A stretch of DNA of 52,093 nt, filler included, from Streblomastix strix (lineage: Eukaryota): the NCBI GenBank assembly GCA_008636045.1. It is 3 parts of 3 records of this genome, joined end to end, with 100 filler letters (N's around TTAATTAATTAA, not from the genome) between each part and the next. Parts side by side here need not be neighbours in the genome. Positions count along the whole stretch, not along the records: positions 34,825 to 52,093 come from SNRW01000711.1; 2 more parts are not named here. One strand, 5' to 3'. A model generated the notes under the pieces. It saw only the letters and a program-made list of their open reading frames with translations, was not told where the DNA came from and made no database searches. A program made the position numbers and the translations under genes. Of this stretch, positions 37,342-47,216 are shown piece by piece; within the stretch, counting starts at the first letter, position 1, and the number at the start of each line of letters is the position of its first letter.

Positions 37342-37616
37342 TTTATTGCGAACGTTTTAGGCTCCTAATCGTCATACAAGAGGCACGGTCGCCACTTATT
37401 GATAGTAGGGGTCACCCCAAAAAGGATATGGGATCGTACGTCATACAGGGAGATAAAAGCATAACTCAAAAGGGGGCGACAAAATAATAGAGGATTGGCG
37501 CTCCTAAAAATAATCTAAAATAGTCTAAGGTGAATTCTTATTTGCGAATACGTATATCCACTTGTCGTACATAGTGAGCTGACCATATTCACCTTGATAC
37601 TGTTGCAATCAGCTCA
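37342..37616 (-). promoter_or_regulatory. Conserved structured 3' UTR with AATAAA, copy 1
   Basis: Multiple stems between the stop codon and AATAAA (37342-37347); differences from copy 2 preserve pairing. Confidence 0.65.
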
Positions 37617-37635
37617 ATTATGACGTGTTATCTGC

Positions 37636-39022
37636 TCAAAGGAGCAAAGCAGGAAGTACCAAAACTGCTGCGAGTAAGCCAAGTGCCACACGAACAACCG
37701 AAAAGCTGTTGATAAAGACATATCCAAAGAATTTGCCTTCAGTTTGTGCTGGTTCAGTAACTATCAAAACTCCGCCAGCATAATCAGCAAACAGCCAATT
37801 ATCTTTCGTCCATCCTACTAGGAGACCTGTATGCGCAATATCAAATAAATCTTATGAATTCATATAGATTTAGACTGGTCCAAATCGGATTAAGAGTTCC
37901 TTCAATCCCTTGACATCAGCATTACCGAATTCAGCCGACTTGTATCCCTTCAGGTACACCTTTGGTTTGGAATCATCAGCACATTTTGCTCCATCGGCTG
38001 GGAGTGCAGTATTTGGTTGGCAAACTGCGTCTGTCACGCCAGACCTGTGAAGTCCGAGATCTTCAAAGCCACTGGAAGTTGCACAGCTCTCTGTTATAGT
38101 AAAATCTTTCAATTCTTCTTTTTCTGCATCAGTGAGGTTATCTGGTAAATTCTTGAATGTGATCTTAGTAGGACTGTTCTTGATCAATCCAGTGATTGAT
38201 GGTGCAATATCTGCTCCTTCGATGGCAAACACAGTGTATCCCAATTATCCATAAAGGTTAGTCAATATAGCTTCATTAAATGCATTACATTTCGCTACAT
38301 CTAAAACATCAATTGTCTTAGCTACTTCCTTTTTCGACAGATCATCCTTTGGAACAACAAGGAACGTTTCATCATCAACTTTACCACTTCCATACGCTTT
38401 AAAATCTGAAATTGTTTTTGTTGCAAAGAAGCCTAATGAAGTATTTCCAATAGATTTATAATCAATTGTAAGTACTCCATCCTTATCAACGGATCCTGGG
38501 AAGTAGTATAATGAATCCTTAACAAAAGGAATAACATCTTCATCTTCATCTTCCGCTCCAGCTCTTCTACGGACAATTTTGCCTAATGAGAGAACAGCGA
38601 GTACGAGCAACAGTTTTGTGAATGCCCTACAAAAAAAATAAAAATGAAATTAAAAATATTAATTTAAGTTGATCACAACATTTGAATGTCTAAATATGTT
38701 TAATAAATCATTCTCTTGAATAAAATTGTATAAAGTTAATCGATCTGTTTGTAATTGATTTTGGTAGAGCGAATTTTGATCGGTTTCGTTTAGCTATGCA
38801 TAATCATTCGTAATAATATTTATTAATAATATAAGCTTAAATTTAACATAATCTTGCTATATAAATAAATGAATACTATTGCAATCATTCGGTTGGCGCT
38901 GGACAACTGTAATAACTTTATTTGGCCTTGTTCTCCGTAAATTGTCAGTTTCGGACATTTTCTCATCACCCATAGCACTAAAAACACACTCCTGCACCTC
39001 CCTATCTGTGCTGCTCATACAT
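37636..39022 (-). CDS. Secreted, probably GPI-anchored, apparently catalytically dead papain (cathepsin B-like) fold surface protein, copy 1 (330 aa)
   Basis: Exon 1 is AT (39022-39021), intron 39020-38627, exon 2 is G+GCA TTC... to TGA at 37636. Signal peptide MAFTKLLLVLAVLSLG; GVTDAVCQP..KC..LLIRFGPV..LLVGW..W pattern; C-terminal VALGLLAAVLVLPALLL*. Confidence 0.85.
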
Positions 39023-39120
39023 GTAAAATTCACGAGTTTCGAGATTTTAAGCTCGCCGCACGTTTTGAAACGCGCCCAATCTGGCACTTTTTGTACTCTA
39101 AGGGCCGGATCAATGAAAAT
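39023..39120 (-). promoter_or_regulatory. Conserved GC-rich promoter/5' UTR block of the surface protein gene, copy 1
   Basis: GATTTTAAGCTCGCCGCACGTTTTGAAA.GCGCCCAATCTGGC is nearly identical at 47141-47216 and contains a CCAAT motif. Confidence 0.6.
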
Positions 39121-39407
39121 TTTGTTTTTAATTCAGAAATTGAAATCTTTGTTTATAATTAATAATTTCAATTTTAAAAAATTAATATATTATAATTTGT
39201 TATTAATTGTATATTTATTTTAATAAATAACAAAGATAATTTTTTAATGAATAATTTTAATTTTTTGTCAATATTTTTATTGCTTAATGTCTAAATCTTA
39301 ACTCTGATGTAATTTATATATTTTGTTCTTCTCTTTACTAATAATTAATCTTATTATTTGGGAGACTATATAATTTTAAACAACAAACATTATATTCAGA
39401 AAAAATA

Positions 39408-45335: not shown

Positions 45336-45440
45336 AATCGTTTCACTGAATTTATAAAAGAAATGCAATATGAATCATTAATTTTAATCTTACAATAAAA
45401 TAAAAACAATCCAGTTCATTTTGCTCAATGCATTTTAAGC

Positions 45441-45708
45441 TTTATTGCGAACGTTCTAGGCTCCTAATCGTCATACAAGAGGCATGATCACCACTTATTG
45501 TTAATATGGGTCACCCCAAAAAGGAAAATTGGTGGTACGTCTTACGGGGAGATAAAAGCATAACTTAAAAGGGGGTAACAAAATAATAGCGGATTGGCGC
45601 TCCTAAAAATAATATAAAAAAGTCTAAGGTGGATCCACTTTTCACCTACATGCATATCCACCTAAATGAGCTGACCATATTTACCTCGATACTGCTGCAA
45701 TCAGCTCA
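45441..45708 (-). promoter_or_regulatory. Conserved structured 3' UTR with AATAAA, copy 2
   Basis: Same stems as copy 1. Confidence 0.65.
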
Positions 45709-45724
45709 ATAGTGACGTGCCTGC

Positions 45725-47119
45725 TCAAAGGAGAAGAGCAGGAAGTACCAAAACTGCAGCAAGTAAGCCAAGTGCAGCGCGAATGACTGACACACCATTG
45801 AACACTTCAAATCCGTAGTAAGTTGTTTCTGCGCCAAGATACTCTTCTGCTGGTACTGGCATCCATCCATATGTATAGGTGGGTGTTCTGTCAAGTCCTT
45901 CCCCAGTATATTCAGGAGCTGCTAAAATCCAAACATCTTTCTTATCTGCTTCTTATTCCCAGCCAATAAATACATTTGCACCAACATGTACTGGCCCAAA
46001 ACGAACCAACAGGCTTTTCAGAGTGTTTGCATCTCCCTCGAATTAACCAAGGCGGTATCCCTTTAGATAAGCTTTGTATTTTTCATCTGTTGTGCACTTA
46101 GCTGCTTCTGCTGGAATGCCTGTATTTGGCACGCATTTCTTGTCAACAATACCATTTCTGGTAACACCAAAGATGAATGCATATTCAGCATCGCCACCGC
46201 ATGTTTGAGCAACAGTTTCATCCGCAAATGTTGTATTTAATCCTTCACCGACGTTCGTGTAAGTGACCTTTGTTGGGCCATTCTTAATGAGATGTGTGAG
46301 TGACGGTGCAAGATCCACTTTTTCGACCGCATAGACTGAGTATCCAAAAAGTCCATAGAATCCAAATTCATACTCACCAGCTACATTATCGCAGGCAATC
46401 TCATCAGCAGTAAGAGCAACGCTTGTCAGAAGCTTTTCGAGTGCTGCTTTATCAGCTGCAATGCCATAGTACTTCTCAAGGGTCTCGCTTGAGGCAGAAT
46501 CAAGTAGCTTATAATCAGTAATCTTCTTTGAAAGAAATTTTGGTTCCCAATTTTCGGCGCTTGTGACATCTTTCACATCAAATGTTAGAACACCATTCTT
46601 ATCAACTGTTTCACCGTAATAATAAATTGAATCCTTTGCAAATGTTGCTCCAGCTTTTTTCCTTAAAAGGGTTGGTTTCCCGAATGAGAGTACAGCGAGT
46701 ACAAGCAGCAGTTTTGTGAAGGCCCTAAAATTAAATAAAAATAAAATTATAATATAATATTGAAGTCGATCATAACAATTAAAGGTCTAAATATATTTAA
46801 TACATCATTTCCTTAAATAATAATTAATAAAATTAGTCGATCCATTTGTTTGGGATTTTGGTAGATCGAATATTGATCTGTTTCTTTTAGCAACAAAAAA
46901 GCATTTATACATATATTGATCAATAAAATAGGATCAAGTTAAACATTAATTATCATCATAGATATATAAATATCTCTATAAGTAAACGGATGTTGCAGTA
47001 CAAAAGAAATAAATTTTATTGGCTTGGTTCTCCATCAGTTATCAGTTTCTTACATTTTTTCATATTTAATAGCGCTAAATACACACTCATGCACCTCACC
47101 ATCGGTGGTTCACATACAT
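45725..47119 (-). CDS. Secreted, probably GPI-anchored, apparently catalytically dead papain-fold surface protein, copy 2 (333 aa)
   Basis: Exon 1 is AT (47119-47118), intron 47117-46725, exon 2 runs to TGA at 45725. MAFTKLLLVLAVLSFG..QTCGG..GIVDKKCVP..KC..LLVRFGPV..FIGW..W..AALGLLAAVLVLPALLL*. Confidence 0.85.
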
Positions 47120-47216
47120 GAAAAATTTTCCGATTTTCGAGATTTTAAGCTCGCCGCACGTTTTGAAAGGCGCCCAATCTGGCGTTTTTTGTGCTCAAAG
47201 GGATAGATCAATGAAA
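47120..47216 (-). promoter_or_regulatory. Conserved GC-rich promoter/5' UTR block, copy 2
   Basis: Near-identical to 39023-39120. Confidence 0.6.

Follow-up and report, generated by a model that had tools for sequence, protein, structure and literature searches.

A large family of predicted GPI-anchored papain-fold proteins without the catalytic cysteine, with a probable variable binding face, in Streblomastix strix

Introduction

Large protein families that pair a variable ectodomain with a conserved C-terminal end and a glycosylphosphatidylinositol (GPI) or other membrane anchor include the variant surface glycoproteins (VSG) of trypanosomes, the variant-specific surface proteins (VSP) of Giardia and the surface antigens of Paramecium. 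Variant surface families of this kind, families of dead papain-type proteases, and divergence peaks left by gene conversion are each already known. Here we report on a 52,093-nt stretch of Streblomastix strix DNA (assembly GCA_008636045.1), called the window throughout, in which two genes, A and B, encode members of a large papain-fold family without the catalytic Cys, predicted to be GPI-anchored, whose remodelled cleft is probably a variable binding face.

Papers are cited by PubMed Central identifier. Among C1A (papain-type) peptidases, cathepsin B has expanded to 44 paralogs in the oxymonad Monocercomonoides exilis (PMC6759080). Where gene conversion homogenises duplicates except at favoured differences, a peak of divergence is expected (PMC3924837). 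In S. strix both TAA and TAG encode Gln (PMC1501061). Bacteroidales ectosymbionts cover its cells, and it relies on them (PMC12483993, PMC13002328, PMC2717939), for nutrition according to the first two of these sources. The protist also carries integrated viruses (PMC10120064).

Results

Two open frames in a window of three pieces

The window joins three pieces of the genome with N spacers at 17352-17451 and 34725-34824, across which adjacency is meaningless; both genes lie within the last piece, 34825-52093. Frames were translated with genetic code 6, TGA being the stop. On the minus strand, the frame of gene A is open from signal peptide to TGA over 37636-38625 (329 aa), and that of gene B over 45725-46723 (332 aa). 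The gene A protein is letter-for-letter EZS28_004836, whose database model has a different start, and the gene B protein is 100% identical to EZS28_004841; both are S. strix hypothetical proteins. They share 35% identity, and each holds four Cys and the sequence motifs quoted in the first-pass annotation, which had also described both frames as open and is upheld on each of these points. The main exons are:

37636..38626, minus strand: gene A main exon, with the rest of the signal peptide, a beta-rich N-terminal region, the dead papain domain, the GPI-type tail and TGA
45725..46724, minus strand: gene B main exon, with the dead papain domain, the GPI-type tail and TGA

A papain fold without its catalytic residues

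AlphaFold2 models built from 63-sequence alignments reached a predicted local distance difference test (pLDDT) of 92.5 for B and 89.0 for A. For both, the best solved structural match is the C1A protease Der f 1, with Z 11.1 for B and 12.0 for A, and in each case a root-mean-square deviation of 4.1 A over 186 residues. Foldseek gave a top match at probability 0.99 (E 6.5e-4), the ESM Atlas returned Peptidase_C1 with score 0.91 and a template-modelling (TM) score of about 0.5, and SERA5 stood among the fold matches at Z 9.2-9.6. The mature-type domain spans approximately residues 81-311, and the hydrophobic tail follows directly. At the level of profiles, an hhalign comparison with a C1A profile gave 96% probability (E 3e-9, 99 columns), and a search with the family profile picked up two intact C1A peptidases, at E 1.6e-4 and 3.5e-4. 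Single-protein searches of Pfam and of PDB sequences all stayed below threshold, the best of 63 proteins reaching E 0.036 against Pfam, and the 63-sequence profile reached only E 0.005 against cathepsin K. On the models and these alignments, the family is one of C1A homologs with the papain two-domain fold, as the first-pass annotation had proposed. Descent from cathepsin B specifically is likely: the Cys spacing fits B-like enzymes, while in structure B-like and L-like enzymes match the models equally well.

Residue numbers and subsites follow the standard papain scheme, in which Gln19 precedes Cys22. The first conserved Cys of the family has Glu or Gln at position -3 in 61 of 93 sequences, and lies 30 residues ahead of the Ser equivalent to that of the LSxQ motif in 41 of 53; in true C1A sequences, Cys22 and that Ser are 29-30 residues apart in 6 of 8, the other two having no motif match. 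Because of this residue and this spacing, the first Cys corresponds to the disulfide Cys22 and not to Cys25. At the Cys25 position itself, three residues on, Cys occurs in none of 93 sequences, and Val, Ile, Leu or Phe in 81. The stretch from GPV to GW is shortened to 8-10 residues in 36 of 67 members, against 34-40 in the C1A controls that matched, and His is thereby lost. A His at the His159 position is kept in only 2 of 77 sequences, gene A and its sister P0008, whose third triad residue is Asp or Asn; P0013, closely related to them, carries Thr in place of the His, and the His loop in group A measures 19 residues against 34 or more in C1A. In gene A (numbered from the Ala of AFTK) Phe116 occupies the Cys25 position, His265 that of His159 and Asp281 that of Asn175, whereas gene B has Val114 at the Cys25 position, a deleted His loop and Ala at the Asn175 position. 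The claim that the catalytic Cys is lost thus stands for both genes, with the qualification that A keeps His and Asp, and the family is not one of active C1A members. The Cys22 spacing, the Glu or Gln at -3 and the shortened His loop argue against a reading of the CNAF or CFAF motif as a CWAF with its nucleophile kept. Each conserved Cys position of the scaffold is occupied in 89-98 of 94-98 sequences.

Family size and membrane anchors

One profile search across 1.84 billion representative sequences returned 121 matches, two of which are intact C1A enzymes. Of the other 119, 28 were looked up: 20 are named S. strix, five are fragments clustered with S. strix and three are unnamed, so that none of the 28 is named from another species. 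A scan of metagenome contigs confirmed none of 104 pattern matches. Members were counted at the protein level. The first Cys column is covered by 94 of the 126 sequences analysed, 90 of which are mutually less than 80% identical; by this count the family, presented as large in the first-pass annotation, has at least 90 distinct members. Median core identity is 27% among 47 near-full cores. Some members have Cys-rich stalks, tandem domains or long multidomain models: in P0025, P0046, P0060 and P0141 the dead papain domain is in tandem or inside long Cys-rich multidomain models, some of which may be gene-model fusions.

C-termini were compared in 124 sequences. Fifty carry a GPI-type hydrophobic tail without cytosolic residues, nine have an internal type-I helix followed by a cytosolic tail, and the remaining 65 are either partial or unclassed. 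PMC10703272 annotates both the GPI transamidase (PIG-K) and PIG-M in S. strix, which lends weight to the proposed GPI-type tail. The same source gives up to 475 tail-anchor matches in S. strix against about 100 in relatives, and the dead papain family may add to that count; the gene numbers in its supplement apparently do not match database locus tags.

Hypervariable cleft loops

Change among three close group B paralogs is concentrated in two short segments, 112-120 and 176-184: in the three comparisons 11, 12 and 10 of their 18 sites are altered, against 15 of 178, 7 of 181 and 15 of 178 in the rest of the protein (p 4e-6 or lower). In 14 other independent pairs, four such segments taken together show changes at 117 of 273 sites and the remaining sequence at 359 of 1634, and the two Cys segments show the same direction in 11 of the 14 (sign test p 0.03). 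Seven of the eight most variable windows listed are in or adjoin the loop segments. By homology, the variable segments correspond to the start of the catalytic helix, the S2/S3 loop, what is left of the His loop, and the prime side. This clustering of change in close paralogs suggests selection on a binding face. In gene B the segments and the tail that follows are:

46364..46390, minus strand: hypervariable segment 1, residues 112-120, start of the former catalytic helix
46172..46198, minus strand: hypervariable segment 2, residues 176-184, past the second Cys, papain 64-72 region by homology
45824..45988, minus strand: variable His-loop remnant (residues 246-252) and prime-side hairpin (269-300)
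45728..45796, minus strand: predicted GPI-attachment signal, directly past the last strand of the fold

A divergent core between conserved ends

Self-comparison of the window found the duplicated block around the two genes in four pieces, with the core absent from the DNA matches. At the DNA level, A and B are 88% identical in the signal peptide and 84% in the tail, with 70-82% upstream of the genes and 81-96% downstream, against 52% in the core, where the alignment has 81 gap columns. These segment identities agree with the earlier description of flanks that align easily around a core far more diverged and marked by indels. The words "promoter" and "3' UTR" that had been applied to the conserved flanks serve as labels only. 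The conserved blocks, and the two copies of a dynein heavy chain fragment that share the duplication (86% DNA identity), are:

38960..39129, unstranded: GC-rich conserved upstream block, copy A, with a CCAAT-like motif; also within the gene models of two other members
47058..47227, unstranded: GC-rich conserved upstream block, copy B, with the highest summed contig depth of the region and loose ends
37340..37635, unstranded: conserved downstream block, copy A, 81-89% identical to copy B
45418..45724, unstranded: conserved downstream block, copy B
40809..41850, plus strand: dynein heavy chain pseudogene fragment, copy A, used as neutral yardstick
47851..48886, plus strand: dynein heavy chain pseudogene fragment, copy B, used as neutral yardstick

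Over the A-B core, the proportion of synonymous differences (pS) is 0.71, synonymous divergence (dS) about 2.3 and nonsynonymous divergence (dN) 0.65, for a dN/dS of about 0.28; 25 of 40 fourfold sites differ. The core is under net purifying selection with synonymous sites near saturation, and positive selection across the whole core between A and B was rejected on that ratio. The dynein copies are about 14% different, with 43, 41 and 53 differences at the three codon positions; this even spread makes them a fair neutral clock, and the core exceeds them in divergence at p 5e-12. The ends of the genes themselves are younger than the core, with 12 of 34 synonymous sites differing against 131 of 185 (p 1e-4), signal peptide and tail being intermediate at a dS of about 0.5. 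Saturation of synonymous sites cannot come from selection on amino acids; the cores must thus have separated long before the flanks did, and the contrast in age points to homogenisation of the flanks, or swapping of cores, by gene conversion. The first-pass annotation had held that functional coding DNA here outpaces adjacent pseudogene DNA, under diversifying selection or gene conversion. The contrast is real (dS about 2.3 against about 14%), but it reflects age and mosaic ancestry instead of fast adaptive evolution between A and B; hints of diversification are limited to close paralogs and there to a few of the cleft loops.

In line with conversion, an approximately unbiased (AU) test on 40 rows with known ends rejects nine members with a near-identical tail as one core clade (p 0.006), and the upstream block also occurs inside gene models on other contigs, namely the group B model P0004 and the group A model P0013, the latter fused to a dynein fragment. 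As each core type is also present on further contigs, joined to this signal peptide and tail, the shared ends are a property of the subfamily. Summed contig depth, which by the tool's own statement is not a copy number, is 550-850 upstream, 170-220 downstream and 27-61 over the core. CCAAT-like motifs lie in both upstream and downstream conserved blocks (39052-39085, 47150-47183, 37493, 45592), and about 50 bp of the upstream block also appear in other contexts among contigs and could represent either a small repeat or a promoter element. The idea of a structured RNA in these flanks was rejected, as none of 64 pairs showed double changes and z lay between -1.5 and +1.2 in 10 of 10 folds; the downstream block gave no significant RNA fold and no Rfam match, and one chance Rfam match fell elsewhere.

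Splicing of the two genes

Upstream of the main exons, each gene has a putative short first exon and intron:

38627..38711, minus strand: gene A uncertain first exon and intron, from the sequence, alignment to B and the donor consensus of PMC1501061
46725..46808, minus strand: gene B first exon and intron, ATG AT at 46808-46804, then a 79-nt GT-AG intron

Intron 1 of gene B is normal, with a GTATT donor, an AG end and a length of 79 nt; the donor is close to the S. strix consensus GTATG (PMC1501061), and the start after splicing, MMAFTK, matches database model P0003. In gene A, the donor homologous to that of B reads TT rather than GT (38706-38705), with alternative, weaker GT donors at 38679 and 38676, both frame-preserving. 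As judged from sequence, gene A would need one of these weaker donors; it may be splice-defective, and may or may not be expressed. Of the earlier report of two intact genes about 8.1 kb apart, the open frames and the spacing hold (the two stops are 8,089 bp, or 8.09 kb, apart), while A may not be intact.

Surroundings in the window

The genes are surrounded by scrambled and broken dynein heavy chain and polyketide synthase fragments, identified by Pfam matches in 7 relevant frames of 40 scanned. At 42687-45165 on the minus strand are broken polyketide synthase pieces of this anaerobic protist (dehydratase and methyltransferase Pfam matches), interleaved with dynein fragments in both orientations. 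The start of the last piece, 35350-36710, holds satellite arrays whose units measure 14 bp and 13 bp and which contain short GC-rich inserts; they are possibly subtelomeric or centromeric. In the other pieces, long intron-split open reading frames (ORFs) with low-complexity inserts at 27395-33589 (plus strand) resemble, by eye, a MutS-family, MSH6-type mismatch repair gene. An inverted pair at 13267-14877 (minus) and 22278-23732 (plus) consists of coiled-coil, lysine- and glutamate-rich ORFs about 69% identical, and a 912-aa ORF at 8935-11673 (plus), with a predicted membrane helix and charged tail, resembles another single-pass surface protein.

Discussion

A C1A scaffold has lost Cys25 and most or all of its His loop but kept four Cys, with a signal peptide and a C-terminal anchor signal present, and has expanded to at least 90 distinct sequences at a median core identity of 27%. 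Young paralogs vary mainly in the loops that, by homology, rim the cleft, a pattern seen at the protein level that selection may have shaped. We propose that inter-locus gene conversion or unequal exchange holds the ends of the duplicated block similar without erasing the old, distinct cores, and ends homogenised around persisting cores would produce the divergence peak over the ectodomain. As for ligands, surface molecules of the bacteria covering S. strix are a tentative suggestion. The preferred function would be a repertoire for bacterial binding or adhesion, ahead of escape from viral attachment or VSG-like switching. The fullest form of this proposal is an antibody-like receptor repertoire in which about a hundred pseudo-proteases, anchored and hypervariable in the cleft loops, are traded as cassettes between common ends and serve to recognise and hold the bacterial ectosymbionts; it is speculative and we regard it as doubtful.

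Several points weigh against the proposal of a variable binding face and exchanged cores. Signal peptide and GPI-type tail were called by hydropathy and inspection, and the cleft was assigned by homology. The loop segments were chosen after group B had been seen, 3 of the 14 other pairs are reversed, enrichment outside group B is only about twofold, and single segments rank only within the top 3-17% of windows. In one close copy the 21 changes listed fall 6, 8 and 7 at codon positions 1, 2 and 3, which is near neutral, and exposed loops of a dead enzyme could merely drift. The AU test that rejects the nine members with a near-identical tail as one core clade was made under a simpler model and with the long-branch P0012 included; groups A and B as one clade are not rejected (AU p 0.63), so the shared ends could partly reflect inheritance and constraint. 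The GC-rich blocks may be constrained or dispersed elements, and gene A's possible splice defect belongs here too.

The neighbourhood of scrambled dynein and polyketide synthase fragments would suit a by-product of birth and death, in which a dead cathepsin rode on a repeat-rich duplicating block, its loops relaxed and its flanks being dispersed repeats or regulatory DNA. The upstream block's depth far above that of the core, its presence in other contexts and the modest loop enrichment outside group B fit this as well. A strongly conserved scaffold, in the Cys positions and in the A-B dN/dS, and long open frames despite a neighbourhood of 27% GC argue otherwise, and 67% change in loops against 4% elsewhere would not come easily from drift alone; we consider such a by-product unlikely. 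We give the same standing to a single replacement, by which a recently duplicated block had one core overwritten by a distant paralog, with no ongoing homogenisation. Identity does step fairly sharply past the signal peptide and ahead of the tail, but both core types recur on other contigs with the same ends, and the upstream block lies within models of both groups, P0004 and P0013. A chimera from assembly or amplification, with different cores attached to repeat flanks that had collapsed, might be suspected because the family's database contigs are short and no Logan piece among those listed spans the entire gene B region; flank copies that differ by 4-30% and hence are not collapsed, frames open across both junctions, and recurrence of the same end-core pattern on separate contigs make it highly improbable.

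Antigenic variation like that of VSG or VSP, with one coat member displayed at a time and silent cassettes copied between conserved ends, would fit a large GPI-type family, conserved ends around swappable cores, the mutated donor of gene A as in a possible silent copy, and the satellite arrays at the start of the contig piece. Each gene having its own copy of the upstream block suggests independent expression instead, no mosaic donor for the loop variants was found by eye among the sequences compared, termites are generally understood to lack antibodies, and no telomere was seen in the window; we judge this reading quite unlikely, and the analogy a lead only. That group A remains partly catalytic, its CNAF or CFAF Cys acting as Cys25 with His and Asp or Asn, draws on the alignment of these residues with the C1A triad in P0001 and P0008 and on the resemblance of CFAFS to CWAFS. 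It is very improbable given that spacing and the -3 residue place the Cys at Cys22, that the His loop is too short by the C1A measure (19 residues against 34 or more), and that P0013 has Thr in place of His.

On our preferred reading, a probable variable binding face on anchored pseudo-proteases, the family supplies concrete candidates for host-side symbiont attachment proteins; our literature searches found no paper naming such proteins. It is also a pseudo-enzyme expansion of unusual size, its cleft remodelled, whose members have passed as hypothetical proteins under Pfam thresholds. Single-cell transcriptomes of S. strix exist (PMC13002328), and whether one or many members are expressed is now testable in them. 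The same searches found no description of the family, nor of any family that joins a dead papain scaffold with a remodelled cleft to membrane anchors, a membership near one hundred and hypervariable loops in clusters; the species' genome paper and the supplement of PMC6759080, which might mention the family, lie outside their coverage.

With the C1A peptidases, and with the cathepsin B expansion of an oxymonad, the family shares the fold, the Cys framework, the GPV and GW strands and the multiplication of genes; unlike them, it lacks the catalytic Cys, has a His loop of mostly 8-10 residues against 34 or more, and adds a beta-rich N-terminal region and a C-terminal membrane anchor. The SMIPP-C proteins of the scabies mite are likewise lineage-specific, multicopy dead papain-type proteases (PMC5956821), but are described from mite gut and faeces, whereas the S. 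strix family has anchor signals, a remodelled cleft and at least 90 members. Plasmodium SERA is a tandem papain-domain family that includes dead members (PMC7132891); in contrast to the family here, that source gives it nine genes, a change of Cys to Ser only, low diversity and no antigenic variation. The red and green opsins show a comparable peak of divergence in the selected coding part with low divergence in the flanks (PMC3924837), but in S. strix the peak spans the entire 880-bp ectodomain and reaches synonymous saturation. The VSG, VSP and Paramecium antigens resemble the family in size, variable ectodomain, conserved C-terminal end and, for S. strix, predicted anchor; their fold is unrelated.

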